Positions 14,643 through 60,839 of a DNA stretch of 64,000 nucleotides are shown one piece after another. This stretch comes from a virus: the IMG/VR virus record IMGVR_UViG_3300009184_000038, positions 10,546-74,545 of that record; one strand, written 5' to 3'. Every line of letters starts with the position of its first letter. The first letter of the stretch is position 1. The position numbers and the translations under genes were made by a program. Under the pieces are notes generated by a model. That model worked only from the letters and a program-made list of their open reading frames with translations. It was not told the DNA's origin and did no database searches.

Positions 14643-14685
14643 AGTCAATCCTCCTTGAAATGAAACGGGACACAAACCGGCAGGC

Positions 14686-14714
14686 ATTGTCTGCAACAGT
14701 AGTGTGACTGTCAA
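14686..14714 (-). promoter_or_regulatory. Sigma70-type promoter TTGACA-N17-GACAAT
   Basis: -35 at 14709-14714, -10 at 14686-14691. Confidence 0.65.
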
Positions 14715-14923
14715 GACTGATCCAACCCTTCGACGAACTTCCTCATCTCAGTCGCGTAGACCTCGACCGACTCTGCCAAGAGATAAGAAGCAGTCGCCAG
14801 ACCGTGAGCATCAACTTGTTGCGCAGCCTTCGCAGTCGCCTTAATAGCCGGAATCGTCGTAGACAGCATCCTCTCAATGTTCATCATTCGCATAGCGATG
14901 AGGATTTTGTCTTCGGGTGTCAC
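14711..14923 (-). CDS. Hypothetical protein
   Basis: GTGA overlap with GNAT stop. Confidence 0.55.
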   Translation of the reverse strand: MTPEDKILIAMRMMNIERMLSTTIPAIKATAKAAQQVDAHGLATASYLLAESVEVYATEMRKFVEGLDQS

Positions 14924-15324
14924 TTGCGTGCCTCACGCCACGTCCCGTCTGGCTTCCGGTCGAAGCTCGCGTAGAGAATCCCCAGGCGGCTGGCGAGCGA
15001 TACCATCGCCGGCCGGAACACGGCGACGAACTCGTGATCGCGGAACACGCCTTCCGTCCGCAGGCCGGCGGTGCAGAGCGTAGCCACGCCGCGGCGGCGG
15101 TAGGCCGGCGATACGAACGCCTCGAGCGTCGGTATCTCATTCCATGCCTCGCTCCTGGCCCAGCCAATGATCTCGCCTTGATCCAGGCAGATGGCGATCG
15201 TGCCGGTCACGGTGCCGCCGAGCAGTGCCCGCTGGAACTCGCTTTCCGGTCGCGTCAGGTGGTCGGCGATGAATCGACGCTCTGAGGGTCGCAGAAGGTC
15301 GGTCTTGAGAACGAATAGCTCCAT
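14920..15324 (-). CDS. GNAT-family acetyltransferase
   Basis: FVSPAYRRRGVAT acetyl-CoA motif A. Confidence 0.8.
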   Translation of the reverse strand: MELFVLKTDLLRPSERRFIADHLTRPESEFQRALLGGTVTGTIAICLDQGEIIGWARSEAWNEIPTLEAFVSPAYRRRGVATLCTAGLRTEGVFRDHEFVAVFRPAMVSLASRLGILYASFDRKPDGTWREARK

Positions 15325-15998
15325 TACTTTTCAAGCTCCCGCAGCACGCCCTCGATGATCGGGTGCCTGACAATGTCTGTGCCCTTGAACTCGACGACGC
15401 CAACGCCCTTCAGGCCCGACAACCGCTGCATCACGTCGATCAGACGCCGCTCGCTCCTGGGGAGGTCGGACTGGTCGGCATCGCCCGTGACGATGATCTG
15501 GCTGCCCGTACCGAGGCGGGTGAGAAAGAGCTTGAGTTGCCCGAACGTCGAATTCTGTGCTTCATCAAAAATCATGACAGAACGCGAGAATGTGCGGCCT
15601 CGAAGGTATGCGAGAGGCGCGATCTTCACCGCGCCGCTGATGCGGTCGCGGGTATGGCCGCGCTTGCCGGCGATCCGCTCGAGCGCGTCGAAAAATGGCA
15701 CGAGGTACGGGCCGACCTTCTCTTCTGCACTTCCAGGCAAGTAGCCGAGCTGCTCCGTCGCCACCGACGGTCGTGTGATCACGATGTTCTCCACCTTGCC
15801 GTCAACGAGCTGCTGGACGGCGTAACCGCTCGCCAAGTGTGTCTTCCCCGTGCCGGCTGGGCCGAGCACGAACGTAATCACGCTCCTGCTGATCACCTCG
15901 AGCGCGTGAGCCTGGGCCTTCGTGCGTGCGGCGTAGCCCTCCGGCGGCGGCGGCAGTGCGGGCTTCTTCTTGGATTGGCGTTCGCGCTTTCGGTTCAA
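15324..15998 (-). CDS. phoH: PhoH-family ATPase
   Basis: GPAGTGKT, LGYLPGS, AYLRGRTF, DEAQN, GDADQSD, RHPII. Confidence 0.96.
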   Translation of the reverse strand: MNRKRERQSKKKPALPPPPEGYAARTKAQAHALEVISRSVITFVLGPAGTGKTHLASGYAVQQLVDGKVENIVITRPSVATEQLGYLPGSAEEKVGPYLVPFFDALERIAGKRGHTRDRISGAVKIAPLAYLRGRTFSRSVMIFDEAQNSTFGQLKLFLTRLGTGSQIIVTGDADQSDLPRSERRLIDVMQRLSGLKGVGVVEFKGTDIVRHPIIEGVLRELEK

Positions 15999-18421: not shown

Positions 18422-18561
18422 TTCTTCTTTGCCTTTTCCTTGGCGTTTTTGGCGATATCAAGAGCGATGGCGACTGCCTGCTTGTGCGGACGACCAGCCT
18501 TCATCTCAGTCTTGATGTTCGCGCTGATTGTCTTCGGGCTATACCCCTTTTTGATTGGCAT
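18418..18561 (-). CDS. Small basic phage protein (47 aa, not in the ORF track)
   Basis: MPIKKGYSPKTISANIKTEMKAGRPHKQAVAIAL, a recurrent phage family motif; ATGA-coupled to the MTase. Confidence 0.75.
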   Translation of the reverse strand: MPIKKGYSPKTISANIKTEMKAGRPHKQAVAIALDIAKNAKEKAKKK

Positions 18562-18661
18562 TCTTGCCCTCCACGATGATTCGGAACTCGGAGCACCCGC
18601 ACTTCGGACATGGCCCGTTGGTTTTCTTTGGCTCGTTGCAGCGATTGCAGAAGCGGTTCAT
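18539..18661 (-). CDS. 40-aa zinc-ribbon micro-protein
   Basis: CNRC and CPKC; ATGA overlap with the HNH stop. Confidence 0.5.
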   Translation of the reverse strand: MNRFCNRCNEPKKTNGPCPKCGCSEFRIIVEGKNANQKGV

Positions 18662-19290
18662 GGGAGTAGCCATTCTTCAAAGCCCCGCCACCCGATCTGA
18701 GCAGCCCACTGAACGCTTACGCCGCTAGGGAACTTCAGCCGTCCGTGCTTGTGAATCTTGCTGTGACAGTCGGAGCACACTGTCAGGAGATCGGAAAGCT
18801 CTTCTCTGAATATGCTTTCGTATGCAACGTGATGGCACTGAATCTCTTCAGAGTCTCCGCACAGCACACACATCATTGAATCGTGCTCAAACCTTGCCGA
18901 ACGAACAATCTGCCAATGCGGTGTCATGTAGTAAGCCGAACGCATCTCTGGAGTTACTCTTGCAAGCGATGGCTTCTGCCTCGTGTCGGGCATGAAGTAA
19001 GGAGAGGCGTGGCTTCCGTCGCCCTTAATCAAAAAACCATGTGCATTTCGCAACTGCTCAACAACAGGCGCTAGCCTGCTGCCATCGCTCAGTTCGCTTT
19101 CGTAGACGCTTTTTTTCAAAAGGTCGCCTGACCTTAGTCGAGCAAGAACGTCGCATTGAGCTTCGTCTCGCTGATGAAAGTCACGAGCTGTGTTTTTCAG
19201 CTCTTCCGCTGCCTCAAACGGAATGCAGGCAGACAAACACGAATCGATGCTGTTTTCGTATCCCATAATGCCCCCTGCCTCTGTGGTCAT
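18658..19290 (-). CDS. HNH endonuclease with N-terminal extension
   Basis: YY.TPHW..VR, CVLC, CHHVAY, L.TVCSDCH..IH. Confidence 0.85.
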   Translation of the reverse strand: MTTEAGGIMGYENSIDSCLSACIPFEAAEELKNTARDFHQRDEAQCDVLARLRSGDLLKKSVYESELSDGSRLAPVVEQLRNAHGFLIKGDGSHASPYFMPDTRQKPSLARVTPEMRSAYYMTPHWQIVRSARFEHDSMMCVLCGDSEEIQCHHVAYESIFREELSDLLTVCSDCHSKIHKHGRLKFPSGVSVQWAAQIGWRGFEEWLLP

Positions 19291-19502
19291 TGCCCTTTCC
19301 TCTCCTCAAGCCAGTCAGCCGCCTTCTCAAGCCACGCGGCGACTCTCCGCAGGGCTTCTGGGTTTTCGCTGTAGTCGGGATCGCCTTCGCACGGCGGGAG
19401 CGTGTCGAACATGACATCGACATACGGCGTCGAATGCTCCTCGTCGCGACAGGTCAGCGAAAACCGCTCGTCGTCGATGTCGATTGGGGACGGTGGTTTC
19501 AT
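19287..19502 (-). CDS. Hypothetical protein
   Basis: ATGA coupling. Confidence 0.55.
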   Translation of the reverse strand: MKPPSPIDIDDERFSLTCRDEEHSTPYVDVMFDTLPPCEGDPDYSENPEALRRVAAWLEKAADWLEERKGQ

Positions 19503-19614
19503 TCGTCATCCCCCGTCATGTAGGGAAGCAGGCTGAAGTAAAAAACCGCCCCGACGGCCACGAGCAGAGTCGTGACGTTAAGCCAGAGGCTCATGTGTGA
19601 TTCGATTGGGGTCA

Positions 19615-19857
19615 TCACTCACCTCGCAGATAGCCGAGCCATGTGCGGGCCGGCTTCCGCAGCTCTTCGACCTCGTCGAGAAGGCTGTTGAGTGCCTTCT
19701 CGGCGTTCTCGAGGCGAACGGTCAGGGCCGCGACTGACTTCGTCAACGCGACGGCCATGCGGTCGGTCGATTCGCCTTCTTCGCGAAGGTCGTGAACCGC
19801 CTGGGCGATACCGGCGATCGTCTTTTCAACGCTGCACTCGGGCTTTTTCTTTGCCAC
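19615..19857 (-). CDS. Coiled-coil hypothetical protein
   Basis: GGAGGA RBS before GTG; heptads. Confidence 0.55.
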   Translation of the reverse strand: MAKKKPECSVEKTIAGIAQAVHDLREEGESTDRMAVALTKSVAALTVRLENAEKALNSLLDEVEELRKPARTWLGYLRGE

Positions 19858-19907
19858 CAGAAATCCTCCGTGAATGAAACAACGAACGAGAACAGAAAGC
19901 CGGTCGA

Positions 19908-20096
19908 TCACGACGCGGCCTCCTCCGTTTTCGGAGGGGCGCGGTAGATCAGTTCCTCGCGGATGATCTTGACGTGCTTGGGTGCGTCGATGACGAGCCT
20001 GACCGTCTTGCCTACGACAGACTCGACCGTGATCTCGATGCGAGGCCGATCCAGAATGAGCTTCTGGCCGGGGCGACGAGTTAAGCAAAGTGCCAT
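19908..20096 (-). CDS. csrA: Carbon storage regulator CsrA/RsmA homolog
   Basis: LCLTRRPGQKLIL...IEITV...VRLVIDAPKHVKIIREEL matches the CsrA consensus. Confidence 0.9.
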   Translation of the reverse strand: MALCLTRRPGQKLILDRPRIEITVESVVGKTVRLVIDAPKHVKIIREELIYRAPPKTEEAAS

Positions 20097-20129
20097 GTGG
20101 GAATCCTTTCCGCTGTGGTGATCAGTAGC

Positions 20130-20606
20130 CTAACGAGTGGTGCCAGTAGCGTCCAGATGTTTTTTGCACATCTCGCGAACCGTCGGTCGCGGGTGGTTGT
20201 CGATTGCCCATTTTAGGTAGTCCAGGCCACGCGGCTGCTTCTCCACCTCTGGTAGCGTGAGGCCGGCGAACCGACCGTCACGCAGGACGAACTCCTGATC
20301 CCTCGGCTTCAAGTGCCCCTTGATCGCTCGCACCCACTGGCCGGTGCCACAGAAGACGCACGACACATACCACTCGCCGCCGTCCTCGTAGAGGATGTCG
20401 TGGAGTTGGGTGCCGCAGGCGGCGTCTGCGCAGTCGTAGGTGTGATCGATCATGCCGATTGGCAGGATCGCTCGTGGAGCAATTCCCCCTATATAAATAG
20501 GGTCTTTTTTGGGTTTCTCGGGTTCAATTGGATGGGCCGCGGCCGGTTGCGCGCGGGAGCGTTTTCGGGTCGGCTCATCTGGCGAAATGTCGAATAGCAG
20601 GGTCAT
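20130..20606 (-). CDS. Zn-ribbon plus ExoX C-terminal/DUF3820-like protein
   Basis: CADAAC/CVFC; GRFAGLTLPEV...DYLKW. Confidence 0.6.
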   Translation of the reverse strand: MTLLFDISPDEPTRKRSRAQPAAAHPIEPEKPKKDPIYIGGIAPRAILPIGMIDHTYDCADAACGTQLHDILYEDGGEWYVSCVFCGTGQWVRAIKGHLKPRDQEFVLRDGRFAGLTLPEVEKQPRGLDYLKWAIDNHPRPTVREMCKKHLDATGTTR

Positions 20607-25246: not shown

Positions 25247-25316
25247 GGGTTTCTCCTAGAGCGTTTATCGATCCATCAACCAGCCGCGCGGGCAACGCGC
25301 CCGCGCGGCAACTTCA

Positions 25317-25769: not shown

Positions 25770-27105
25770 CGATGACTTCCTTTCTGTTAGAGAGAGCTTC
25801 ATACACGCGGCCGTCTGCCGTTGTCTTATTCTGTAGGTAAGCAACTAGGCTGAAAAACCGCGTGTTTCGTTCCTGCCCAGGCCGATGGAGGCGGGCGATT
25901 GCTTGCAGCCACTCGGAGAGCGAGTGGCCGAGACTGTAAAAGATGCCGACGGCGGCCCTGGTGAGATCAATTCCGATTCCGCCTGACTGAATCTGAGCAA
26001 CCAGTACGGCGGTCTCACCGGCCTGCCACGCGGCAAGGGAGTCCACTTTACCCGACAGCTCGCTCACGGTGCGACCCAGTTGGTTGCAAACGTGCAGGAC
26101 ACTGTCGATATCCGACCGAAACCGGCAGAAGACGACCAGCGGCTCGTTCTCGGGCATATCCTCGAGCATCTCCGCGAAGGCGGCCCGCTTCGACGGCGTC
26201 TCGTCGATCTGCCGCGCCGCGACGGTATCGTCGAGTCGCATGAAGCCGCTGGTGGCCTGGAGCATCCGCAGCAGGCCGACCATCGCGTTCGATGGCGTGA
26301 TGTAGCCGCCATCGACCTCCGCACAGAATTCACTCTCGAGCTGCGTGTAGACTTTGGCCTCCTTGGCCGTCATCTCCACGGGCACCTCAATGTGATGGAT
26401 CGGCGGGAGGTCGAGGACATCCTCGCTCTTCCGCTGGAATGTCGTCGCCGCCACGCGGGCAGCGAACTGCTCGCGGTTTCGCCAGCCGATGACCATGCCG
26501 GGGATCGCGGGATTCACCACGGCGTAGGTGGCCTTGAAGAGCGTGTAGGTCGTGCCGAACGTCGGGCACTCCGGCGATTCGACGGCCCGCCACGTTCCGT
26601 AAGCGTCGAGAGGCGACTGAGCCAGGAGCGTGCCGCTCAATCCGATCCGCTTCGCGGTCGGGTTTTTCTTGCAGAGCTTGGCCGCCCACTTACTGGCCGC
26701 GCCAGACGGCGACTTGAGCCTGTGAACCTCGTCCCACACGAGGCATTCCCAGGACAGCTTTTCAACTTCCTTGATTCGCCAGAGCGATTCGTAGTTGCCG
26801 ACAACGATCACGGGCGATGTGTCGGCCATCGCTGCCATCAGCATTCGGCCTTTGTCGGCCGAGGTGCCGCGGTCAAGCAGGAGCACGCGAATCTCAGGCA
26901 TCCACATTCCCGCCTGCTTCGCCCAGGCGGGAATCACCGCCTTCGGGCAACCGACCAGAATGCGGCGAATGCTGCCAGCGAGCATCATCCGCTTGATTAT
27001 TTCCAGCGTGGTGCGGGTTTTGCCCGCCCCCATGCCGATCCACAACAGAACGTCGCGGCGGCCGTCGGCCCAGTCGATCGCTTCCTGCTGATGTACCCAG
27101 AGCAT
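25714..27105 (-). CDS. SNF2-family SF2 helicase
   Basis: GMGAGKT, DEVH, LSGT, SGGIGIDL, QAIARLHRPGQ. Confidence 0.93.
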   Translation of the reverse strand: MLWVHQQEAIDWADGRRDVLLWIGMGAGKTRTTLEIIKRMMLAGSIRRILVGCPKAVIPAWAKQAGMWMPEIRVLLLDRGTSADKGRMLMAAMADTSPVIVVGNYESLWRIKEVEKLSWECLVWDEVHRLKSPSGAASKWAAKLCKKNPTAKRIGLSGTLLAQSPLDAYGTWRAVESPECPTFGTTYTLFKATYAVVNPAIPGMVIGWRNREQFAARVAATTFQRKSEDVLDLPPIHHIEVPVEMTAKEAKVYTQLESEFCAEVDGGYITPSNAMVGLLRMLQATSGFMRLDDTVAARQIDETPSKRAAFAEMLEDMPENEPLVVFCRFRSDIDSVLHVCNQLGRTVSELSGKVDSLAAWQAGETAVLVAQIQSGGIGIDLTRAAVGIFYSLGHSLSEWLQAIARLHRPGQERNTRFFSLVAYLQNKTTADGRVYEALSNRKEVIDVVCNSYRTRHNAALERA

Positions 27106-27158
27106 CCTGCTGCACTCCTTTGCGTGGGCAGGATAATAGGCTACTAGTCAACGATCAG

Positions 27159-27707: not shown

Positions 27708-27900
27708 CTCTCGGTCTCCTGGCGGGCAAGCCGCCAGAGAAGCATATTCCTCGGGATCGCCCAGAAGGACGATTTTGCCCAAACGCCACGGCTCCCCACT
27801 TGACGCGAAGTGGAGGATAGGGGATTTTAAGTGGGAACGCCACCCCCGGCGGTCAACGGCCAGCAATACGCAGTCCGTCCGAAAAACATGGAGGTTGCCG

Positions 27901-28104
27901 ATGCGGAGGTTCAAGGTGATATGCGAGTGGACGGGAGACGTGAGCATGGATGCTGACGAATTGATCGTTTCTGCCGACAGCAAAGAGTCTGCCATCAAGA
28001 AAGCGAAAAAGAAATGGAGGTTAAACATCGGCGCGAAATGGCCCGACGCGCGTCTGGGGAAAGTTTTTATCTTCACGCCGGCAAGGCAGGCAAAGTCGAC
28101 ATAG
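27901..28104 (+). CDS. Small hypothetical protein upstream of the integrase
   Basis: GGAGG RBS; 67 aa. Confidence 0.55.
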   Translation: MRRFKVICEWTGDVSMDADELIVSADSKESAIKKAKKKWRLNIGAKWPDARLGKVFIFTPARQAKST

Positions 28105-28201: not shown

Positions 28202-29056
28202 ATGCGATTGCTTCAAGTGCTTCACGATTTCTACGCGCCGCTGACGGGAGTCAGCGACCGCACGATCACCCTCTACAGCTACACGCTTCGTGCGTGGGGG
28301 GAGGTTCTCGGGCGACCGCCTGAGACCACAGATTTAGAAGAGCTGTCGGTCGCGCGGTTCTTGGCTCACCGTGTTCGCACGATGTCGGCCGCGACGGCCG
28401 CGAAGGATAAGGCCCAGGTCACCGCCATCTGGGGGTTCTGCTCGAGGCGTAAAATGTGCGAGACGTGGCCTCAGACTCCCAGGATCATCGTGCCCGAGCG
28501 GGTGCCGGAGTGCTGGATGACGGACGAGCTTCAGCGAGTGATCGACTCCGCGAGGCAGGAGCCGTACAGCTACTGCGGCTTCTCTGGCTCGCTGGTGTTC
28601 CCCGCGATGCTCCTGACCGCTTACTCGACGGGGGAACGCATCGGCGCGATCATGGGCCTCAAGTGCCGCGACGTTCGCGGTTGCAGCGTTATCTTCAGAG
28701 CGGAGGATCGCAAGGGGCGTCGGCGGGACATTTTCCGCGACATTAGCGTAGCCTGCGCCGATGCGCTCCTGGCTGTTGCCCGCGGGCCAGAGGATACCGC
28801 CATCCCGTGGGATCGGCACCCAACCTACGTCTACAACCGGCTGAAGATCATCCTCAAACGAGCCGGCCTGCCGCACGGCCGCAAGGACAAGTTCCACAAG
28901 GTCAGGAAGACGACCGCCTCCTACTACGAGGCGGCCGGCGGCTCTGCCCAGCGTCTGCTTGATCACTCGAGCCCAGCGGTCACGAGGAAATACCTAGACC
29001 CCAGGATCGTCAGCCCAGGCGTGCCTGCCCCGAGCGTGCTTCCCAAGGTGGTCTAG
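28202..29056 (+). CDS. int: Tyrosine recombinase/integrase
   Basis: TGER (R), HKVRKT (HxxR), LLDHSS (H), RKY (Y). Confidence 0.92.
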   Translation: MRLLQVLHDFYAPLTGVSDRTITLYSYTLRAWGEVLGRPPETTDLEELSVARFLAHRVRTMSAATAAKDKAQVTAIWGFCSRRKMCETWPQTPRIIVPERVPECWMTDELQRVIDSARQEPYSYCGFSGSLVFPAMLLTAYSTGERIGAIMGLKCRDVRGCSVIFRAEDRKGRRRDIFRDISVACADALLAVARGPEDTAIPWDRHPTYVYNRLKIILKRAGLPHGRKDKFHKVRKTTASYYEAAGGSAQRLLDHSSPAVTRKYLDPRIVSPGVPAPSVLPKVV

Positions 29057-31130: not shown

Positions 31131-31838
31131 TCAGAAGCTTCCTGAATCGATAACAAGATTGTCGATGGAGCCGCCAGTGATGTTCACGTTGCTCGAACTC
31201 TGCTGGCTCATCGAGCCGAGGCCGAGGTTTGTGCGAGCCGTGGCCGCATCGGTCAAGTCGCTGAGGTTCGAGGCCTTGGCAAGCTTGCCGCCGATGGTTG
31301 TCGAGATCGTCGTGGAGAAGCTGGCATCCGAGTTCAAAGCGGAGGCCAGTTCTGCCAGTGTGTTTAACGCTTCTGGTGCCCCATTCACCAGCGATGACAC
31401 AGCCGCCGACACGAAAGCCGTCGTGGCGATCTTGGTCGAGTTGTCTCCGGCCGCTGGAGTCACAGAGGCAGGCATTCCCGTGAACGTCGGAGACGCCAGC
31501 GGCGCATAGGTGCTGCTCGCAGAAGACTGCGTGAGATAGGTGCTGCTCGCAGAAGAGATCGTCAGGTAAGTCGTCGCGGCGTTTGCCGTGGTCAAGTAGT
31601 TGGCGAGTTGCGAAGACACGTCAACGGCCGCGACAGCCGAGGTGACATAGCTCTTGGTTGCGAACACCCCGTCGCCGCCGATGGCGATCACGCTTGTGGC
31701 GTTGCCGTCCTGCCCTAGACCCTTGCCATACCAAACCACACCATCGACCTCATTCACGGCGACTTCGCCGTTGAGAAGAGTTGCTGGTGCGCCAGCGTTG
31801 CCCGATACTCTACGCTTCAGCCTAAGACGATTTGCCAT
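31131..31838 (-). CDS. Tail fibre protein
   Basis: APLASPTFTG, NSTKIATTAFV, APEALNTLAELA, ARTNLGLG repeats. Confidence 0.85.
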   Translation of the reverse strand: MANRLRLKRRVSGNAGAPATLLNGEVAVNEVDGVVWYGKGLGQDGNATSVIAIGGDGVFATKSYVTSAVAAVDVSSQLANYLTTANAATTYLTISSASSTYLTQSSASSTYAPLASPTFTGMPASVTPAAGDNSTKIATTAFVSAAVSSLVNGAPEALNTLAELASALNSDASFSTTISTTIGGKLAKASNLSDLTDAATARTNLGLGSMSQQSSSNVNITGGSIDNLVIDSGSF

Positions 31839-32619: not shown

Positions 32620-33795
32620 CTATGAAATCCAGAGCCGGAACTTTCCTTTTGAATTAGTACTGGAAGCAGTCCAATCCGCTGTTGAACTGTACGAAGTGCC
32701 TGTCGTTGAACTCAATTTGATGACATCTCCAGCGGTAACACTTATAGTCCTGCGCGCTCCGTGTGTGCCGAAAAATGTCTGACTGCCCACAAATGCTGTA
32801 GATAGAGTGCCGTTTCGCACATACCTCACCATGTCAGGGATTTCCGAGCCGTCATTCTCTCTGCCGCCGAACTCAACTGTAAGAGTGCCAGAAACCCCGC
32901 AAGTAAACTGCCAAACACGGTAAGTATTTGCGCCGTATCCCCAACCCCAATCAATTCCGTTTGGGGCAGCCGCGTCACTGGTTTGAAGCGGGCTTGCTGC
33001 TGTTCCGCTGCCGCTCCATGAGTACGCTGTCCCGACATCAGCGGTGCCGCTAGAGGGACTGACTGTAAGGCTCGCCGCACTCGGCGTGACGCTGCTGCTC
33101 GCCGCCGTGAAGGTGCCAGTACCCGCCGCACTCACGCCCGCAACTCGCACGGTATACGCCGTGCCGTTAGTTAAACCCGTCAGCGTGTAGCTAGTGCCGG
33201 TGCTGCCGGTAGACACAGTCTGGGCAGAGCCGCCCGATGGCGTGTATTCGACGGTGTATCCAGTGATTGCAGAGGTGCCGGGCGCAGACGGTGCCGTCCA
33301 AGACAAAGCGATCTGCGCGTTGCCTGCGGTGGCCGCGAGAGATGTGGGTGCATTGGGTGGAGTTCCAGCGCTAGGCGTGACGCTGCTACTCGCCGCCGTA
33401 TAAGCACCCGTGCCTACGCCGTTGACCGCCGCCACGCGGAATCGATACGCAGTGCCGTTCGTCAGCCCCGTGACGGTCGCGCTCGTCGCGGTCGATGCAG
33501 CCGCCGAGAACGTCGTCCACGTTGCACCGTTGTCGCTACTAAACTGCTCACGGTAGTCGGTGATCGGTGCTTGCGCGATCACGCCAGTGGGTGCAGTCCA
33601 AGACAGTAAAGCCTGCGCGTTGCCGCCGGTCGCCGTGAGGCCGGTCGGTGCAGGGGGCAAGAACAAATCCCACCGGGAGTCTGCGGCTCCGGCCGATGCG
33701 ACGAGTTCCCACGCTGATCCTGTCCACGACCACGTCCTTCCGTTGGCCGCGTATGTCTGTCCGACTGTCGGAGATGCTGGTGGAGAGAGCGGCAT
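32620..33795 (-). CDS. Fibronectin type III (x2) tail-associated protein
   Basis: PTGLTAT.GN....LSWTAP...GLTNGTAY.FRVAA repeats. Confidence 0.88.
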   Translation of the reverse strand: MPLSPPASPTVGQTYAANGRTWSWTGSAWELVASAGAADSRWDLFLPPAPTGLTATGGNAQALLSWTAPTGVIAQAPITDYREQFSSDNGATWTTFSAAASTATSATVTGLTNGTAYRFRVAAVNGVGTGAYTAASSSVTPSAGTPPNAPTSLAATAGNAQIALSWTAPSAPGTSAITGYTVEYTPSGGSAQTVSTGSTGTSYTLTGLTNGTAYTVRVAGVSAAGTGTFTAASSSVTPSAASLTVSPSSGTADVGTAYSWSGSGTAASPLQTSDAAAPNGIDWGWGYGANTYRVWQFTCGVSGTLTVEFGGRENDGSEIPDMVRYVRNGTLSTAFVGSQTFFGTHGARRTISVTAGDVIKLSSTTGTSYSSTADWTASSTNSKGKFRLWIS

Positions 33796-48941: not shown

Positions 48942-48942
48942 G

Positions 48943-53900: not shown

Positions 53901-55966
53901 AGATTGTCGAAACCACCGCGTCCAACGTCGCCGGCACGTTGCATATCGCGACGGATGCGGTTGACGCTGCCGCCACCGGCTTGAGACGTTGCGTTAACAG
54001 CGGCGGCACGCAATCGATCAATTCGCTGTCTTGTCGCTGGCTCATCTCGAGTTCCTGCTGCCATCGCCTCTGCGATTGCGTTTCGCAGCGCATTAAACGC
54101 AGCCACTGCGGGGCCGCGCGCCTCCGCTTGCGTCCTACCGAGAGCACCCTGCAATGCCGTTAACGCCGCAACTTCTCCTTGAAGGGCACGCTGATCAAGG
54201 CCCAGCCTAATCCCAGTGACTCCTTCGCCGCCGAACGACTGCGCGAAGTTCATCGCCGCCGACGCCCGCGAGGCATCTTGCGTCAGGCGAACGAGACGCT
54301 GTCGCGCTGCTTCGATTTCGCCGGCAATGGGAACCGCAGCCGAATTCAGACGCATGAACTCCGCCTCGGCCTCGCGAATGGCCGGGACGAACCTAACCCG
54401 AAGCGGCTCGGGGAGCGTGTCGATGACGCTCTTGAGCGACGTGATGCTGTTCTGAAGCACGCCAAGCTGTCGAGCAGGAGCCTCGATGTCCATGCCCAGC
54501 GTAAGGCCCGTCGTTCCGCCAAGCTCGGCGGCCTTTTCTGCCTGTGCCCTTCGTATAAGAGTGGCGATCTCGCCGTCGGCCACCCTCTCGGCCAGGGCCA
54601 GACGCTCCTGCTCTGCCGCCTTTGCAGCTTGATTGACCCTGATTAGGTTCGCGATCTCGCCGTCAGCGGCCTTTTGCGACTGAGCAAGACGCTCCTGTTC
54701 GGCAGCCTTTGCTGCCTGCTCTCTCCTGATGAGCGTGGCGATCTCGCCGTCTGCGACATTCTGCGACTGCGCAAGTCTCGCCTGCTCCGCGGCCTTTGCC
54801 GCCTGTTCTCTCCTGATGAGAGTAGCGATCTCACCGTCGGCGACACTCTGTGCCTGGGCGATTCTTGCCTGCTCCGCTGCCTTTGCTGCCTGCTCTCTCC
54901 TGATGAGCGTGGCGATCTCGCCGTCGGCCACTCTCTGCGCCAGAGCCAGCCTTTCCTGCTCCGCTGCCTTGGCTGCCTGATTGACTCTGATAAGAGTGGC
55001 GATCTCACCGTCGGCGACACTCTGTGCCTGGGCGAGTCTTGCCTGCTCTGCCGCCTTCGCGGCCTGCTCCCGCCTGATGAGGGTGGCGATCTCGGCGTCA
55101 GCCGCGGCGGCTGCTCTCCTGCTCGCGTCAGCTTCCGTTTGGATTCGGCGTTCTATCTCGTCATTCAACTGCCTCTGCGCAGCGATCTGAGCTTTGTACG
55201 CGGCAGTCGCCGCCGCCACATCGCCGTTTCGCGACAGCTTTGCCTTCTCAAGAGCAGAAGCAAGCCGCTCGGTCTCGACCGCAGCCGCGCGTTGCTGCGA
55301 GACAAGCTCTGCATAGCCTCTAATTGACTCGGGCGGCAGCTTGCCGATGTCAGACTGAATCGATGCCGATCGCCTCGTTTCGGCGACCATTTCTGGCCGC
55401 TGAAAAGCCAGCTCTCTGCCTGTCGAAAGCCCCGCAACGAGCGAAGACGCCTCCTTGAGCCTAGACATCGCCGCGGTCGTGCGGTCGATCTTCGCGGCAA
55501 CAGCGTCAAATCGCTGCTCGCTGACTTTCCCGGTTCGATTGATCTCGTCTGCGAGCGACTCGGCGGCCTTCTGCGACGATATCAACGCTGGCAGGAAAGC
55601 CCCTTGAATCTCCGCTGGGAGTTTTCCGAAGGCTTTCGCGGCAGCCGCGAGTGGCTTGTTTATCTGCTCCGTCGCGGAATACAGAGCCTGCATCCGCCCC
55701 ACGGCGGTATTGATGTCTTTGTCGGCAAACCCGCGAAACGACAGCTTCCTCGTCGAGATCGCCGTCAGCGCCCGCTCGAGCTTCTGCGCATCGGTGTATA
55801 TGCCACGAAGCGCAGACGATGAGCCCGCTTGGGCGCTGGTCAGCGATCCCTGCATACTGCTCGCGAACTTCTGGACATCTTTCGCGGCAGCGTTGAGCTT
55901 GCTCTGAAAGTCAGCCGTGTTCGCTGAGACGACAGCGCTGATTTTGCCGAGGTAGCCGCTTGCCAT
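50942..55966 (-). CDS. Tape measure protein
   Basis: 1674 aa, Ala/Arg/Glu/Gln helical, central hydrophobic segment, follows the G/GT chaperones. Confidence 0.93.
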   Translation of the reverse strand: MASGYLGKISAVVSANTADFQSKLNAAAKDVQKFASSMQGSLTSAQAGSSSALRGIYTDAQKLERALTAISTRKLSFRGFADKDINTAVGRMQALYSATEQINKPLAAAAKAFGKLPAEIQGAFLPALISSQKAAESLADEINRTGKVSEQRFDAVAAKIDRTTAAMSRLKEASSLVAGLSTGRELAFQRPEMVAETRRSASIQSDIGKLPPESIRGYAELVSQQRAAAVETERLASALEKAKLSRNGDVAAATAAYKAQIAAQRQLNDEIERRIQTEADASRRAAAAADAEIATLIRREQAAKAAEQARLAQAQSVADGEIATLIRVNQAAKAAEQERLALAQRVADGEIATLIRREQAAKAAEQARIAQAQSVADGEIATLIRREQAAKAAEQARLAQSQNVADGEIATLIRREQAAKAAEQERLAQSQKAADGEIANLIRVNQAAKAAEQERLALAERVADGEIATLIRRAQAEKAAELGGTTGLTLGMDIEAPARQLGVLQNSITSLKSVIDTLPEPLRVRFVPAIREAEAEFMRLNSAAVPIAGEIEAARQRLVRLTQDASRASAAMNFAQSFGGEGVTGIRLGLDQRALQGEVAALTALQGALGRTQAEARGPAVAAFNALRNAIAEAMAAGTRDEPATRQRIDRLRAAAVNATSQAGGGSVNRIRRDMQRAGDVGRGGFDNLSLAANQAAFAIDDFMSSTGGIDQKLRAVSNNVTQLAFVLGGTTGLFVGLGAVLAGQVAVGLVRFANNGRSAEDQTKALNDSLARQKSLVEELAQAFRSLGDAVSRSTLSAGGDSGRQFGQGVSDIRRKQRELREGRVAATDVGFQTNAANISRDRKQLETETDQGVRIGLSRRIQQAEAINRDLPRVLANRPPQLPAAPNIGVRSGTGEINGAGQLREVLFQEVLRNIPQTRRTTTGREAVPQEERERRAREMTAGVDDSYSSQRDVIEKLIGQLQPQADRGEYGFGETVRRLQSLLDQLESPFQKAIDDMALKVASASEEAARFIRESQEDVADAISRGVPGAARFQQELDSLASDLTEANAKLARSVEMAAETSDPAQREALAKDAEKQVAAVRIKQAETESRAREVRLGRSMGGERLTQATASLEGNERFRNERAGLIARGRAAADAELVARRNVERSAASVGDRQQQLRDARAELQKVMDAGGDTAAADAAVEKAEADLRAAEAASSAAGASLELSQKASEAAAALAEAAAGIEAALTRIRKIGDSALQRSEQGADAAQRAFEENPLRAGGREARDAAEERLINDRAAVGIAQADVDNRRRAIRQSPFMRPVNRELEEINQRRQELEAKDRIGGGLNQAESAELDAATKREIELIRQREMITTRLTEAERKQLDAINNGILAREKELEKGRQRAAEDPTFKRRMDATNQIIADSERQAAEAEQRYINNPNEKNRRERDEADARLRSDRQRAQELQDNLDNRRKEIDKDPAVAANNRSIAANDRRLADLAEKEAKGGLTGLEIAERDRIQEENRRMRGENEGAIDAGTRDERKAIDDERIAQNQRDRALRGRDLGLTDRERFRKEYTEGAGADINERAAQMRAAGEDPNKFLRQAFRNQMESVAPMLKGFQDERQTAMLQGPSRAALNVSDVSTSQGASELTRLIRGDDSAKDVNLAELKKQSGYLEDIRNDLKANNPGVLL
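54524..55102 (-). repeat. 87-bp (29-aa) tandem repeat, 6 full copies plus a partial
   Basis: ADGEIATLIRREQAAKAAEQARLAQAQSV units. Confidence 0.92.
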
Positions 55967-55970
55967 CGAT

Positions 55971-56294
55971 TCATCCCTGGATTGGCGTGTTCAGTTTCAT
56001 CAGCTCGGCCATCAACTGCTGCTGCGATTGCTCTGGCTTGACGACAGTTGGGATGAACGCGGCCTCGTCTGGGATGTCGTGCTTCTTGTAATTCCCAGAC
56101 GACGCCATGATCACCCGGCACAGTCGCGCCGTCTGGCCCCAAGGGTCAGGCAGCGGCCATCGCTGATCGAATGCGTACCACTCGGCGATCTCCTTGCTGT
56201 CAACCTCCTGCAACAGCTTTTTAACGCTCATCCCCAGAGTTGCGGCTAGGCGGAAGTAGAAACGTCGCTCGGGGCGGCGGGCGAATCTTCCCCC
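55971..56294 (-). CDS. Tail assembly chaperone GT extension (-1 frame)
   Basis: -1 frame open from the slippery site: GGRFARRPERRFYFRLAATLGMSVKKLL...EWYAF. Confidence 0.8.
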   Translation of the reverse strand, partial: GGRFARRPERRFYFRLAATLGMSVKKLLQEVDSKEIAEWYAFDQRWPLPDPWGQTARLCRVIMASSGNYKKHDIPDEAAFIPTVVKPEQSQQQLMAELMKLNTPIQG

Positions 56295-56617
56295 AGGCCA
56301 TCCACGGCCTCCTGCGTGAAGGCGTTCAGCTTCCAGCCGGCCTCGAACAGTCGATTGATCACGACCGACGACTTCTTCCCCAGAACGTCAGCCTCGTCGT
56401 CGCTGAAGAGCCGCTCGCCGTCCTCGTCGCACAAGGCGAGCAGGAGGAAACGAATGCGAAACGCCTTCATCTTCTGGTCAGCGTAGGACTCCTCGAAACG
56501 ATCGCGGTCGGTGCCGGTGAGAACACGAAGAAACACGTCACCTTTCCACTCGGGAACGGCGAACTTCTCCTTGCGAACGTCATCGACAGCCAGGATGCTT
56601 TTACGATCAAGTGCCAT
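56246..56617 (-). CDS. Tail assembly chaperone G
   Basis: VPEW.G.V..R.L.G..RD.FE...LCDEDG.RLF; position before the TMP. Confidence 0.85.
   Translation of the reverse strand: MALDRKSILAVDDVRKEKFAVPEWKGDVFLRVLTGTDRDRFEESYADQKMKAFRIRFLLLALCDEDGERLFSDDEADVLGKKSSVVINRLFEAGWKLNAFTQEAVDGLGEDSPAAPSDVSTSA
56288..56294 (-). promoter_or_regulatory. Programmed -1 frameshift heptamer G GGG GAA
   Basis: In frame near the end of chaperone G; the same heptamer class is known in other siphoviruses. Confidence 0.8.
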
Positions 56618-56662
56618 TTCGATCTGCTCCAAAAAAGTGCGTGCGGTGCGGCATCCTGCCGA

Positions 56663-57028
56663 CTATGCGCCTGTGTAGTCAGTCATAAGAAACTTGAGAG
56701 AACCGCGAACCAACTCGCCAGACTGTGCAGACACAGTTGCTGATTCGCATATCACGCGGCGGCTGATGCTGTATCCCGGCGACGTGAACGTCAGGATGCC
56801 AGCCAGCTTCACAAACGCCCAGGGGTCGGCGTTGATGGTCAGGAAGTCCACAGTTATGGTGCCGCCGGATTGTTCTCCGGTCGGCACCATAACTGTGTAT
56901 CCGCGGCCAGCACCAACGCCGGTCATGTTCGTGACCTCGGCCGTGGGCATCTCCACGGAGATGCCGGTCAGCGTGCCGCTGAAGCCCAAGAAGGAGAACG
57001 TCGCGCCGTTTGCGGTGGCCCCGGCCAT
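56663..57028 (-). CDS. Tail tube-like protein 2
   Basis: Beta-rich 121 aa; GELVRGSLKF end resembles the neighbour. Confidence 0.6.
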   Translation of the reverse strand: MAGATANGATFSFLGFSGTLTGISVEMPTAEVTNMTGVGAGRGYTVMVPTGEQSGGTITVDFLTINADPWAFVKLAGILTFTSPGYSISRRVICESATVSAQSGELVRGSLKFLMTDYTGA

Positions 57029-57048
57029 GTCGGGTCACCTCCAGAGCG

Positions 57049-57378
57049 TTAGGCCACCCGCCAAGTCGCACTGCCCTTGATAAGGTCGCCGAGGGCTCCG
57101 CTGACAGTCGAAGACTGAAGCGTTGCGCCGCCCGTGAACGAGACAGGGCCGCTGATCGAGATCGATCCGGTCTGGGCCGAGACAACCGTCGCGCCGATGT
57201 AGTCGCAGGAGATTTCTCGCTGAACGAAAGTCGGGACGTACTCGCGGCGGCCGCCTGGAGCGATGCCGAGGTGCGAACCGTCAGCGTTGTCGATCGTGTC
57301 GTTGACATTGAAACTCGTGATCGTGAGCGTCGTGCCCGCGTAGGTCATCGACACGCCCATTGCAGCAGTACCGGCCAT
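57049..57378 (-). CDS. Tail tube-like protein 1
   Basis: Follows the terminator gene; AGGAGG RBS; GDLIKGSATW end. Confidence 0.65.
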   Translation of the reverse strand: MAGTAAMGVSMTYAGTTLTITSFNVNDTIDNADGSHLGIAPGGRREYVPTFVQREISCDYIGATVVSAQTGSISISGPVSFTGGATLQSSTVSGALGDLIKGSATWRVA

Positions 57379-57402
57379 AGTGCGCCTCCTTGCGCTAGAG
57401 TC

Positions 57403-57828
57403 TTATTCAGTGGCCTCTGACCACCGAATCTGAAATAGTTGTCGTACCTCGTATGCGGGAGGGAGCTGGGCTCCCACGGCTGCCGGGTCTAGATAGTCAT
57501 CCGTTTCCGAAACGAGCCGTATATCACTAATTGTACTGCCCGCGAGGGTGCCGGTGCGTCCATCCAAAGCAATTCTCACCTCGTCTGCAAGCTCGCGTGC
57601 CGCGTCGTAGTAGAGAGCCCAGGAGGCGATCTGAAGATGAACAACAGGCTGATAGAGAGGCCCGACAAGGCTGGAGTCTCTAGTAATGTTATTCCGCTTA
57701 TAGACGCAAAATGGCAGCACGGCGGTCTTTGGTACGGCAATCGGAAACACTTGAAAGCCCACAAGCCTCGCCACCGCGGGGGTGGTGACAAGCCTCTGAA
57801 AAACGTGCTTTTCGGGCGAGATGATCAT
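57403..57828 (-). CDS. Tail terminator/completion protein (DUF3168-like)
   Basis: LP..VY.R...QI.SWA..Y..A..LA..VR.ALDG. Confidence 0.8.
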   Translation of the reverse strand: MIISPEKHVFQRLVTTPAVARLVGFQVFPIAVPKTAVLPFCVYKRNNITRDSSLVGPLYQPVVHLQIASWALYYDAARELADEVRIALDGRTGTLAGSTISDIRLVSETDDYLDPAAVGAQLPPAYEVRQLFQIRWSEATE

Positions 57829-58562
57829 TGCGTGAGCCTCGCCAGCGTGTTTTCGATGGCGGCCTTCAGCGTGTTGAATACGGCCCCCTGCTGCTCGTCA
57901 ATGGTTTTTTGCATCGCGTGCTTCGCTGGCATCGCCGGGTAGGTATCGCCTGGGTGGAGCGTGATCGGGTGCATCTTCCCGTTGGTGTACCCGAAGTCGT
58001 GCGGGTATCCCTTGCCCATGCGGGCCTGCCGCGTTGCTTCTTTGATGCTGCCCATCAGAAAGTAGTAGCCTCTCGACATATTTGCGAACTGCTGATTGTT
58101 CGCCGACGAGTGCCGTCGCATCTTCCCGTTGATCAACTGATGGACGTTGAGGTACGTCCGACGCCCCTTCGTCCCAGGCTTACGGCGGTCGGTGCCCCAT
58201 TCGACGAGCCATGCGTGGTTGCCCGAACCGTCTTTTTCTGTAGCGCTTCCTGTGCCAGTCTGCCACGGGCCGACGATAGCGACCGCGGCGGCGTCGTAGG
58301 TTTTCGTCTTGATCCTGACCGACTTCTTGAGATTGCCTGTGGCGTTTCCAACCTTGGCTCGATACCCACGCCTAATATGCTCGGCGGCCTTTTTTACCGC
58401 ATCCTCAAGAGCTTTCGGCTCGCCCATCTTGGCGGCAATCGCCTGCAACTCCTCCGCCAGCTCGCGGATGCCAGCCGTCTTGACCGTGACGAAGCCTTCG
58501 GCGAGCGACTTGCCCGTCTGGCCGCCGAATGTTCTGGGCGATCCCTGTCCTTGCGTAATCAT
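57825..58562 (-). CDS. HK97 gp10-like neck protein
   Basis: G..EL...L, TGNLKKS, HAWLVEWGT, MPA.H. Confidence 0.85.
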   Translation of the reverse strand: MITQGQGSPRTFGGQTGKSLAEGFVTVKTAGIRELAEELQAIAAKMGEPKALEDAVKKAAEHIRRGYRAKVGNATGNLKKSVRIKTKTYDAAAVAIVGPWQTGTGSATEKDGSGNHAWLVEWGTDRRKPGTKGRRTYLNVHQLINGKMRRHSSANNQQFANMSRGYYFLMGSIKEATRQARMGKGYPHDFGYTNGKMHPITLHPGDTYPAMPAKHAMQKTIDEQQGAVFNTLKAAIENTLARLTQ

Positions 58563-58879
58563 GTCGCCTCCTCCCTCGCCAGTATCTCATGGATCGAGCG
58601 AGCCTCTCGCTCAAGCACGCTGGATATCTCCATCACGCGGCCGCGCCACATAAGGCGATGCTGGTGCGTGATGCCGGGGAAGAATCGGATGCGAATGCGG
58701 TGGGTGACCAATGCTCCGGCCTGCTGGGCTGCGAAGTAGTCGGCTGCCCTAACGCCCATGACGCTGGCGTAGACCGTGGCCTCGTCCTCCCAGGTCAGAG
58801 TCGTCTCGCCGAACGCGCTCTGCTGATCCACTGGCCTCTGGATCGTCACCCGCTCCCGCATGGTGCCTGAGTTGATCAT
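58559..58879 (-). CDS. Head closure (SPP1 gp16-like) protein
   Basis: G.MRERVTIQ...FG....W...THRIRIR. Confidence 0.9.
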   Translation of the reverse strand: MINSGTMRERVTIQRPVDQQSAFGETTLTWEDEATVYASVMGVRAADYFAAQQAGALVTHRIRIRFFPGITHQHRLMWRGRVMEISSVLEREARSIHEILAREEAT

Positions 58880-58882
58880 CGA

Positions 58883-59212
58883 TCACCCCATCCATAGTGC
58901 GGTGTAGGTGCCTGATCCAGAGGGGGCCGATACCGTGATCGTCGCCGTCACCGGCAGGACTGCCAGCCGGCCGGCGGAGACGTTGATGCTGCCGGCCAGC
59001 CGCAGGACGCCCGCGCCTGTGTTCTTCACGACCAGCGTCGAAAGGGGCGTGGCACCGACGATCTGCACCGCAGCCGTGCCGACGCTGCCATTGATCGTCT
59101 GCGCCGTCGTCAGGGCAGGGGAGAGATGCTCGGACAAGTTGCCGATAGTCAGCGTCGTTTCGTCGACATCGTGGTATACGGCGTCGATGTCGATGCGGGC
59201 GCGAACGGTCAT
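58883..59212 (-). CDS. Hypothetical virion protein
   Basis: Beta-rich; coupled within the neck operon. Confidence 0.65.
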   Translation of the reverse strand: MTVRARIDIDAVYHDVDETTLTIGNLSEHLSPALTTAQTINGSVGTAAVQIVGATPLSTLVVKNTGAGVLRLAGSINVSAGRLAVLPVTATITVSAPSGSGTYTALWMG

Positions 59213-59847
59213 CGGTAGACCCCCTGGCTGGCGGCGGCGAGTAGCGTCTCGAACGTCTGCGGCACCGACTGGGGTGCCCCGGTGACAGCGGGCTGCCGCG
59301 TGTCATAAAAATGGGCCGTCAAAAGAAGGATCAAGTGCTTGACCACGGGCGGCGCGGACTGCCCGTCGTCGCCGTAGCCCGCCGAATACCGCACCGTCAC
59401 CGAGTTCTCGTCGCCTCGAGTCGCCGGCCACGAGCGAGCCCACTGCGGGTAGATGCGGCCGGGGAGGACGCTAGCGTCGATCTGGAAGTCAGTGGCGCTC
59501 GAGAGCGTGCCGTAGGTGCCATCGCCAGTGCGGTAGGTCACAGTCACCGCACGATCCAGCATCGGCAGCCGGGGCAGGATGATCGCCCAGACCGGAAACA
59601 GATCGTACTTGACCTCCCAGACGGTCGTGCAGATCGTGATATCCAGAACGTCCTCTACATACTGCCTCGCGACCGCGATCAGCGACTGGATGTAGAGATC
59701 GTCGGCGTCCGTATCGACGCGGCAGTGCTGCTTGGCGACGGACAGACTGACCGGCTCCACGGCCGGCGACGTGATTCGCCGAAGACTGCGATACGGCGTG
59801 ATCGTCGGCGTCGGGTTCTGCGGCGTGCCGAAGATAATCGTGTCCAT
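59209..59847 (-). CDS. Head-tail connector (gp6-like)
   Basis: EPVSL..AK.HCRVD...DD.YI..LI..AR..VE; AGYG; AHFY..R. Confidence 0.9.
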   Translation of the reverse strand: MDTIIFGTPQNPTPTITPYRSLRRITSPAVEPVSLSVAKQHCRVDTDADDLYIQSLIAVARQYVEDVLDITICTTVWEVKYDLFPVWAIILPRLPMLDRAVTVTYRTGDGTYGTLSSATDFQIDASVLPGRIYPQWARSWPATRGDENSVTVRYSAGYGDDGQSAPPVVKHLILLLTAHFYDTRQPAVTGAPQSVPQTFETLLAAASQGVYR

Positions 59848-60038
59848 TATCGCCTCTTCTTCTGTACCGTCTTGGTTGTCATGTCAGCCCGCTCGACGGC
59901 CACCGGCGCGGCCTCGGCCGTCTCGACCTCCTGAATCAGCCCTCGCCGAATAAGGATGTCGCACATCCCAGGAGACCAGTCGTCGAAGACTTGCCCCTTC
60001 TCGTAGCAGTCGAAGCTCTGGAGGATGCGGATTCTCAA
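59847..60038 (-). CDS. Small head-region protein
   Basis: TTG start overlapping the GT stop; G.V......LIRRG motif. Confidence 0.6.
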   Translation of the reverse strand: MRIRILQSFDCYEKGQVFDDWSPGMCDILIRRGLIQEVETAEAAPVAVERADMTTKTVQKKRR

Positions 60039-60763
60039 TTGACTTGCCCCCAGGCGTCTTCTGGTGCCTTCTGGCCGCTGTTCCAATACTCCGTCGTGTG
60101 CTGCTGCACCTTGCCGCCCTCGGCCTTCCGCGAGGGCCATGTGACCATCAGCTCGGCGTGGCCGACGCTGACGTGCGTTGCCAGCCCCAGCTTGTTCCCG
60201 CACGCGGCCCAGCTTTTCCAGAAGCCGATATCCTCGTCGGTATGCCCGCCAGACCACTCGCCGTCGGCATTCGCCTTGGCAATGAACCAAGGCTTCTTCA
60301 TCTTCTTGAGAGCCGCTGTTCGCAGGAACGTCAGTCCGAAGTGGGCCGTCTCGACCGGCTGGACTACCTTCTGAAAGAAGTCGCCGTCCACGGTTGTCTT
60401 CGCATCCACGTCACTTCCCGCCAGGGCGAACATGACCGCATTGGCCTCCCGCTTGGTCTGGAGCGGCGCGATGGCGTCGTAGCCAGAGTGGAGCAGCAAC
60501 GCCAGCAACGCCTCGACCGTCTTCGAGCTGAAGACCGTGTCGTAATCGATGGTCAGGATGACATCGTTGTCGTCGATGACCTGTTCCATCGCCCGCTGAA
60601 GACACTGGCCCCAGTAAGCACCAGTCACCTTGATGGGGCTGATGCCGTGTGGGGCCAGGGCCGACGAGACACAGAAGAAATTGTCAGTGAACCCAAGTCG
60701 CGGGGTGCTCATCACCGCCGCGACTTTGATTTCCGCTTCGACGTTACCGACACGAATCAGCAT
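60035..60763 (-). CDS. GT-A fold glycosyltransferase within the head-neck operon
   Basis: ILTIDYD (DxD), HFGLT, EDIGF, VGH motifs. Confidence 0.8.
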   Translation of the reverse strand: MLIRVGNVEAEIKVAAVMSTPRLGFTDNFFCVSSALAPHGISPIKVTGAYWGQCLQRAMEQVIDDNDVILTIDYDTVFSSKTVEALLALLLHSGYDAIAPLQTKREANAVMFALAGSDVDAKTTVDGDFFQKVVQPVETAHFGLTFLRTAALKKMKKPWFIAKANADGEWSGGHTDEDIGFWKSWAACGNKLGLATHVSVGHAELMVTWPSRKAEGGKVQQHTTEYWNSGQKAPEDAWGQVN

Positions 60764-60839
60764 GGATCGCTCCTAATATGGAGCGGGCGCGCATCCATGC
60801 GCCTTTGTCGGCCGTCGTGGCCGTCCCGCAGTTCGGGAA

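Follow-up and report, generated by a model that had tools for sequence, protein, structure and literature searches.

The stretch of DNA analysed here, a window of 64,000 nucleotides corresponding to bases 10546-74545 of IMG/VR record IMGVR_UViG_3300009184_000038 (74,545 bp, completeness rated 100%), belongs to an uncultured phage, labelled G000 below, that encodes a homolog of the RNA-binding regulator CsrA and places several of its Shine-Dalgarno (SD) sequences in the A-N-GGA-N hexaloops of short hairpins. The excess of such hexaloops at SD positions is real and geometry-specific. Judging from the form and conservation of these hairpins, the phage CsrA is predicted to bind the SD hairpin of its own message, in an autoregulatory arrangement, together with a few late leaders, tuning their translation, a reading that we prefer to its rivals but advance tentatively, giving it somewhat less than an even chance. 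The original prediction had proposed a phage CsrA regulon, autoregulation included, on the basis of five GGA-loop hairpins. Overall, the analysis confirms the observation in part and lends partial support to its interpretation: conserved hairpins do occupy the leaders of csrA, of a glycosyltransferase (GT)-like gene and of a tail assembly chaperone (TAC) gene, but the hairpin signature does not track the presence of a phage csrA.

The major head protein (MCP) of the phage finds 213 related contigs in IMG/VR, from which eight near-complete genomes (G000, G001-G003 and G006-G009), with MCP identities of 71-99%, were compared together with two large but partial genomes, with gene starts called in every genome by the same in-house codon-bias and ribosome-binding-site caller. 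Under a strict geometry, in which a stem of 3 bp or more closes an A-N-GGA-N hexaloop, the eight csrA-bearing genomes (clade A) carry hexaloops at 40 of 225 SD positions (-16 to -5; 17.8%) and at 68 of 2433 positions elsewhere (2.8%). The odds ratio against their own background is 7.5 (p 2e-17), pooled over eight related, non-independent genomes; orthologous sites are counted in several of them, so that pooled p-values overstate independence, and approximately eight independent leader families carry the hairpin. In G000 alone, with all leaders included, the count is 6/55 versus 10/356 (p 0.012). Five unrelated high-GC phages lacking csrA (YuA, BcepNazgul, 16-3, D3 and phiC31) show 1/96 at SD positions (1.0%) and 26/1474 elsewhere (1.8%), and 240 kb of a candidate host metagenome-assembled genome (MAG) show 0/46 at SD positions. 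Motifs mutated in the GGA or in the first A of the loop yield no excess in any set.

The idea that all these hairpins are chance pairings around GGA-rich SD sequences draws on a broader count. When GGA is accepted anywhere in a loop of 3-8 nt on a stem of 4 bp or more, some 10% of the GGA triplets in the G000 genome qualify, and the GGA-loop set of the original prediction does not stand out from chance on this definition, with 18/154 in leaders (11.7%), 102/969 in coding sense (10.5%) and 84/866 in antisense or other positions (9.7%). All five hairpin sequences that it listed are exact, on the minus strand and at the positions it gave, and those of csrA, TAC and the GT-like gene are kept in relatives, but the two at 27101-27111, on the start codon of an SNF2 helicase gene, and at 14645-14658 are not. 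Conservation with compensatory changes and an excess that is specific to one geometry and absent from mutated motifs, unrelated phages and the candidate host MAG speak against chance, which is already refuted for the conserved sites and stands only for the two unconserved ones; as an account of the whole set it is hardly credible.

The csrA product scores 55.7 bits against the Pfam CsrA family PF02599 (cut-off 27, E 4.7e-15), or 54.2 bits when the CsrA search is run on the genome itself. It also matches PHROG 9500, 'CsrA-like regulator', and, by phmmer, the solved CsrA/RsmA/RsmE chains 1y00, 2bti, 1vpz and 2jpp, all of which bears out the gene call from which the original prediction started. 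The RNA-binding residues of E. coli CsrA lie on two beta-strand edges and are, as we take them from published mutagenesis, L2, L4, R6, R7, V40, V42, R44 and I47. In the alignment to the E. coli protein (1y00), LcLTRR stands opposite LILTRR and vkiiREEl opposite VSVHREEI, with R44 facing an arginine. The LTRR close to the N-terminus and the V.I.REE motif are both retained, and the presumptive RNA-binding positions of the phage protein are aligned with those of E. coli CsrA. The gene is located in the replication module, in the order PrimPol, helicase, 158-aa gene and csrA, followed by an HNH endonuclease open reading frame (ORF) and a C5 methylase. The locus from PrimPol to csrA has the same layout in all ten clade genomes that cover the region, and csrA is a syntenic core gene of the clade, with CsrA identity dropping to 35-50% in three lineages and the adjacent helicase staying at 63-77%. 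Two further contigs, G004 and G005, were considered as csrA-less relatives and set aside, as they do not cover the replication module.

The gene right after csrA always overlaps the csrA stop codon by 4 nt (including in G002, G003, G006, G008, G010 and the phage contig of G011), while the overlapping genes belong to at least four unrelated protein types across the relatives (98, 114, 90 and 131-134 aa). In G000 this is the 98-aa gene, which is 58-85% identical in four close relatives and has no family match. Such a swappable gene may encode a putative partner or antagonist of CsrA.

The strongest candidate site is found in the leader of csrA itself, where the SD sequence forms the loop of a short hairpin (Table 1) that is present in the minimum free energy (MFE) fold. 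This SD hexaloop is retained in all 12 distinct clade leaders, always as an A-N-GGA-N loop, on five unrelated stems (GGA/UCC, CGGA/UCCG, GCUGA/UCAGC, CGCAA/UUGCG and GAGG/CCUC), and a second GGA is provided by the 5' arm of the stem. The architecture of this leader is that expected for autoregulation, and the hairpin constitutes a putative operator. A separate motif, CGTTAGGCTACTGA (20122-20135, minus strand), lies some 25 nt upstream of the hairpin, and relatives have TAGGCTACTG, TAGACTACTG or TAAGCTACTG in its place. In reverse complement, as CTAGTAGCCTA, the motif is seen upstream of the SNF2 leader (~27140-27150). The motif may represent a putative middle-promoter or operator element.

In the late operon, the 76-nt leader of the GT-like gene folds into four tandem hairpins, the third of which presents the hexaloop with its GGA at -33 and the SD sequence GGAG about 23 nt further downstream. 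Across relatives this hairpin reads GCGC-A(U/A/G)GGA(U/C/G/A)-GCGC, and a comparison of 32 distinct sequences shows no change in the stems, in the A of the loop or in the GGA, with variation at loop positions 2 and 6 and in the loops of the neighbouring hairpins. The fourth hairpin pairs CGCUCC with the SD sequence GGAGCG, burying it. The hairpin is present in 8/8 genomes and the fold has a z-score of -3.57. The leader is, over its whole 76 nt, better conserved than the flanking coding sequence. A pairing of the loop with the start-codon region, seen in the MFE fold of G000, was discarded after being found lost in relatives, in which the spacer is AACC, AAAC, AAUC or AAUG. At the same junction, the csrA-less sister clade introduced below shows a box resembling TTGACA together with a long hairpin that runs into a stretch of U, in the form of a terminator.

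The TAC leader follows the same plan. The GGA of its hairpin lies 39 nt before the AUG (56617) and about 27 nt upstream of the SD sequence GGAG (56627-56630), so that both structural-region sites fall, as the original prediction had it, 25-45 nt upstream of the start codon. The TAC hairpin is retained in approximately 15 of 18 distinct relatives with AGGAU or AAGGAU as its loop and one compensatory stem change (AGGC/GCCU), and is absent from G001-G003. It was also considered as a terminator, and this was rejected because relatives do not keep the U-run found after it in G000; there is also no minus-strand terminator-like site in 55900-61400. The 11-mer GGCAGGATGCC occurs in three minus-strand copies (56660, 9069 and 5994) and in none on the plus strand, with ~0.04 per strand expected from base composition. 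The copy at 56660 is the TAC hairpin; the other two are intragenic, that at 9069 being kept in 4/5 relatives along with the protein, and both were treated as coding rather than as operators, one of them, in a nuclease-like gene, encoding S-A-G-C-P. At the major-tail position, the gene has an SD hairpin that is retained in 7/8 genomes and 31 distinct sequences, with the compensatory variants GCGU/ACGC and CACGC/GCGUG. For the tape measure gene, the hairpin is seen in relatives, where the SD sequence takes the form AUUC-AAGGAU-GAAU or AUUC-AGGGAU-GAAU at -10.

Outside the late operon, the initiation region of the SNF2 helicase gene nests its SD hexaloop in a longer helix, in which AUCCUGC (27128-27134) pairs with GCAGGAU, a segment that extends over two bases of the start codon, the first and the second. 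This outer helix or a CCUCC/GGAGG equivalent recurs in 10/10 relatives, the distant ones pairing CCUCC with the SD sequence GGAGG, and the MFE fold of the region has a z-score of -2.29. The small start-codon hairpin is confined to G000 and its nearest relative, G007, and in the MFE fold the longer helix replaces it. As an arrangement in its own right, the sequestration of the SNF2 start codon by a conserved upstream AUCCUGC(C) has the form of a self-contained translational lock. The hexaloop at 27885-27896 is found in five of six orthologous leaders on the stems AAC/GUU, CAC/GUG and GCG/CGC. Among seven orthologous leaders, the hairpin at 14645-14658 is found in G000 only, and it is absent from the centroid fold. 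Loops of the A-N-GGA-N or CANGGANG type at or near the SD sequence are present in the leaders of csrA, the GT-like gene, TAC, the major-tail-position gene, SNF2 and the genes starting at 27901 and 9325.

Most genes of the window, which has a G+C content of ~61%, lie on the minus strand, among them the late operon, whose order is given with the remaining features in Table 1. The position at which a major tail protein of ~200 aa, and thereby the tail-tube gene, is expected (56663-57378, minus strand) holds two separate ORFs of 109 and 121 aa without family match, each of which shares sequence with a 209-aa ORF read in a different frame (56679-57308). The phage has no close cultured relative by DNA, and its MCP matches cultured phages at only 27%; by CsrA protein, the best cultured-phage match is VvAW1 (45%).

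Table 1. Genes, leaders and hairpins discussed in the text, in window coordinates.
Feature	Position	Strand	Remarks
SD hexaloop UUC-AAGGAG-GAA	9666-9677	minus	gene 9325-9660; in 3/5 orthologous leaders
UCAA-GGAGGA-UUGA	14645-14658	minus	ordinary SD, outside the conserved set
HNH endonuclease ORF	18658-19290		~0.6 kb downstream of csrA
98-aa gene	19615-19911	minus	GTG start overlaps csrA stop (GTGA), as read from the sequence
csrA, 62 aa	19908-20096	minus	PF02599, PHROG 9500
csrA SD hairpin GGA-AAGGAU-UCC	20100-20111	minus	SD within hexaloop, GGA 10 nt before AUG
SNF2 helicase initiation region	27101-27134	minus	SD hexaloop GCA-AAGGAG-UGC (27112-27123) nested in longer helix
SD hexaloop AAC-AUGGAG-GUU	27885-27896	plus	67-aa gene 27901-28104
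Tape measure, 1674 aa	after TAC genes	minus	late operon
Tape-measure start region CAGGGAUG	55972-55979	minus	stem degraded in G000 (one mismatch)
TAC genes G and T	56246-56617 and 55971-56231	minus	late operon
TAC leader hairpin CGGC-AGGAU-GCCG	56649-56661	minus	starts 1 nt after upstream stop codon
109-aa gene at major-tail position	57049-57378	minus	after tail terminator by gene order
SD hexaloop hairpin GCGC-AAGGAG-GCGC	57382-57395	minus	precedes the 109-aa gene
Head-tail adaptor, head closure, neck and tail-terminator genes	after GT-like gene	minus	late operon order
GT-like gene	60035-60763	minus	late operon
GT-like gene leader	60764-60839	minus	76-nt intergenic; four tandem hairpins, from fold and 32 sequences
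GT leader, first hairpin	60824-60838	minus	
GT leader, second hairpin	60809-60823	minus	
GT leader, third hairpin GCGC-AUGGAU-GCGC	60789-60802	minus	
GT leader, fourth hairpin CGCUCC/GGAGCG	60768-60785	minus	
140-aa gene	between major head protein and GT-like gene	minus	late operon order
Major head protein	61303-62655	minus	late operon, first

In the proposed mechanism, a functional CsrA would be made from the replication-gene module, and its dimer would bind A-N-GGA-N loops on phage mRNAs. The csrA message provides the strongest case, in which binding at the SD hexaloop would keep the ribosome off and so maintain CsrA at a fixed level. A second set of putative targets lies in the late structural operon, and would comprise the GT-like gene, TAC and the major-tail-position gene, joined in relatives by the tape measure. 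Two GGA sites are within reach of one CsrA dimer when they are ~10-63 nt apart, and the spacings in the GT and TAC leaders, each with a GGA hexaloop or pentaloop as its upstream element in the classic two-site arrangement, fall within this range. In both, the upstream hairpin would act as a high-affinity site placed 23-27 nt from a GGA-containing SD sequence and bridgeable to it by a single dimer. The outcome would be repression, or tuning, of the translation of selected genes.

A sister clade of more than 300 contigs, reached through a Planctomycetota-binned contig with 40% MCP identity, provides the main test of this reading. It shares the order of structural genes and has a different replication module, and in five of its genomes (rated 100% complete, one with terminal repeats) no CsrA was found by Pfam or by an in-house six-frame hidden Markov model (best E 0.68) that scores every clade-A genome below 1e-17. 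A hidden CsrA was sought in an 89-aa gene behind a GGA-AAGGAA-UCC hairpin, which proved to encode a LexA-type DNA binder. The hairpins of the sister clade precede other genes, such as those of a LexA-type regulator and the DNA polymerase III beta subunit, and its orthologous GT, major-tail and TAC leaders contain no such hairpins.

Several observations weigh against control of phage leaders by the phage CsrA. Hexaloops occupy 16 of 105 SD positions in the sister clade that lacks csrA (15.2%, versus 2.6% elsewhere), a rate far above that of unrelated phages (p 2e-4) and indistinguishable from that of clade A (p 0.64); the original prediction had named csrA-less relatives as a control, and the sites are not restricted to genomes in which the regulator is present. 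Conversely, three unrelated phages that do bear csrA (F116, VvAW1 and Bcep22) have 0/29 hexaloops at SD positions. These two results therefore identify the signature as a trait of the wider lineage that does not follow phage csrA, and the SD-hexaloop signature does not need phage CsrA. Placing the SD sequence in a loop could help ribosomes gain access to it with no protein involved. Furthermore, the broad GGA-loop count shows no excess in leaders, the short hairpins do not exceed shuffled sequence in stability, and the GT leader lacks covariation because its stems never change. Lastly, gene starts rest on a simple in-house caller, and the two single bins that hint at a host are too weak to build on.

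The first of these results lend themselves to an explanation in which the hairpins are CsrA-independent RNA elements, serving SD presentation, buffering against GC-rich flanks or the stability of processed mRNA ends, and CsrA acts mainly on host messages. Besides the shared excess of the sister clade and its absence from three other csrA-carrying phages, this explanation agrees with published proposals on phage CsrA, which are directed at the host, defences included (PMC8450108; PMC7366521). It leaves unexplained, however, why the GT and TAC leaders have hexaloops with an invariant GGA upstream of, and apart from, the SD sequence, and why the csrA hexaloop is kept in 12/12 leaders on five stems, and it does not account for an excess that requires both an A at the first loop position and an intact GGA. 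Moreover, the candidate host family, if rightly assigned, offers no Csr system for the phage protein to plug into. We regard the CsrA-independent explanation as rather unlikely, though it is the main rival to be reckoned with.

The available host hints come from two bins. A relative with 81% MCP identity (contig 18 of G011) is binned in a Chakrabartia (Sphingomonadaceae) MAG and is the sole match among cellular genomes. The contig (50.8 kb) is phage from end to end, and was rejected as a prophage in favour of a binned phage genome. CsrA was not found elsewhere in this MAG or in 120 other sampled Sphingomonadaceae genomes, and the MCP was detected in two of 301 Sphingomonadaceae genomes, one being the binned contig and the other a 30% match, with no prophage relatives. 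The sister-clade contig, in turn, is binned with a Planctomycetota MAG that holds four csrA genes. Binned phage genomes in MAG entries can mislead host assignment.

Framed by these bins is the testable idea of a phage that provides CsrA to hosts devoid of it. In one version, the hairpins would be operators for whichever CsrA is present, so that the sister clade would use that of its host and clade A would bring its own, either for a host without one or for dose. The presence of the signature in both clades, the absence of another CsrA from the Chakrabartia MAG and 120 family genomes, and the four csrA genes of the Planctomycetota MAG are in keeping with it. We nevertheless find it very doubtful, given that each host hint is a single metagenomic bin, the Chakrabartia contig is not integrated and 300 family genomes yield no prophage relatives. 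A bolder formulation, which we consider improbable, holds that a freshwater phage lineage builds many of its initiation regions as CsrA operators and carries csrA, as a core and autoregulated gene, for hosts devoid of a Csr system, omitting it where the host has CsrA. If true, CsrA would be a portable component of the programme by which the phage expresses its own genes and not a host-manipulation tool.

A sponge RNA of the CsrB/RsmZ type, the non-coding RNA rich in GGA hairpins that belongs to a complete Csr/Rsm system, was not found, with no Rfam family at gathering score in the window, where a tRNA scan also returned none. A repeat array at 7380-7810 of the G000 genome, ~2.7-3.2 kb before the start of the window, was examined as a candidate sponge. 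It comprises about 11 co-oriented CCCCGA(A/C)C(G/A)TGG(A/C/G)AAC units, with scattered copies up to genome position 10177, and relatives throughout the clade retain such units in their early plus-strand region. The units (TGGAAAC, TGGCAAC, TGGGAAC, TGAAAAA) do not keep the GGA, and the array was discarded as a CsrA sponge; because its central base varies (GGA, GGC, GGG, GAA), it looks like a DNA-level site, such as a promoter or operator.

Phage csrA genes have been catalogued since 2020. They were reported in 30 of 2517 phages, some of which infect Burkholderia hosts that have no csrA on the chromosome (Sobrero and Valverde; PMC7366521), and in GenBank and IMG/VR, with host manipulation and suppression of CRISPR-Cas as proposed roles (Campa et al.; PMC8450108). 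More recently, a functional genomics study of 2025 obtained smaller plaques on knock-down of a phage csrA, and otherwise describes the role of the gene in the phage cycle as untested (PMC11879866). The published ideas are all directed at the host, and full-text literature searches returned no paper proposing an action of phage CsrA on phage leaders. If true, the regulation by CsrA of itself and of selected virion genes would add a form of protein-mediated translational control borrowed from bacteria to phage development. The sister clade teaches that an excess of SD hexaloops is in itself no proof that a phage CsrA reads them. The candidate target RNAs are short and defined.

The candidate sites resemble those of known CsrA-family systems, such as RsmE on hcnA (PDB 2jpp) and E. 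coli CsrA on glgC, cstA and pgaA, in presenting an A-N-GGA-N hexaloop on a short stem whose closing pair is often C:G (CANGGANG), and, as in CsrA/RsmE targets, the loop either overlaps the SD sequence or precedes, by 23-27 nt, another GGA located there. Unlike in those systems, regulator and targets would both be encoded by the phage, a sponge RNA was looked for and not found, hairpins of this type also occur in a sister clade that lacks csrA, and the arrangement is known here from sequence. The csrA gene is also akin to the mobile CsrA/Rsm homologs of F116, Bcep22, DC1, VvAW1, PTXU04 (gp28) and plasmid RsmQ in being a small CsrA-family gene on a mobile element. It is found at 33363-33569 in F116 and at 31170-31364 in Bcep22, in both cases within a block of virion genes and in Bcep22 directly before the major head gene, and at 28277-28489 in VvAW1, between an exonuclease and an HNH endonuclease, much as in the present arrangement. 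As in VvAW1, csrA stands here among DNA-metabolism genes with an HNH endonuclease downstream, although the endonuclease is adjacent in VvAW1 and some distance away here; unlike F116, Bcep22 and VvAW1, all run through the same pipeline, the present phage shows the hexaloop excess in its leaders.

The closest parallel to the putative csrA operator is provided by the csrA gene of E. coli, which is autoregulated at the level of translation through binding of CsrA to its own leader, SD sequence included. The phage csrA likewise has its SD sequence embedded in a GGA hairpin, but the four dispersed sites of the E. coli leader are replaced by one compact hairpin, a putative site, in a short leader. 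Phages also have translational repressors of their own that act on their own mRNAs, such as RegA of T4 and the coat protein of MS2, which binds the operator hairpin of the replicase gene. The proposed action of the phage CsrA would be alike in being a shut-off by a phage protein at the RNA of initiation sites, and differs in involving unrelated protein folds and RNA motifs.

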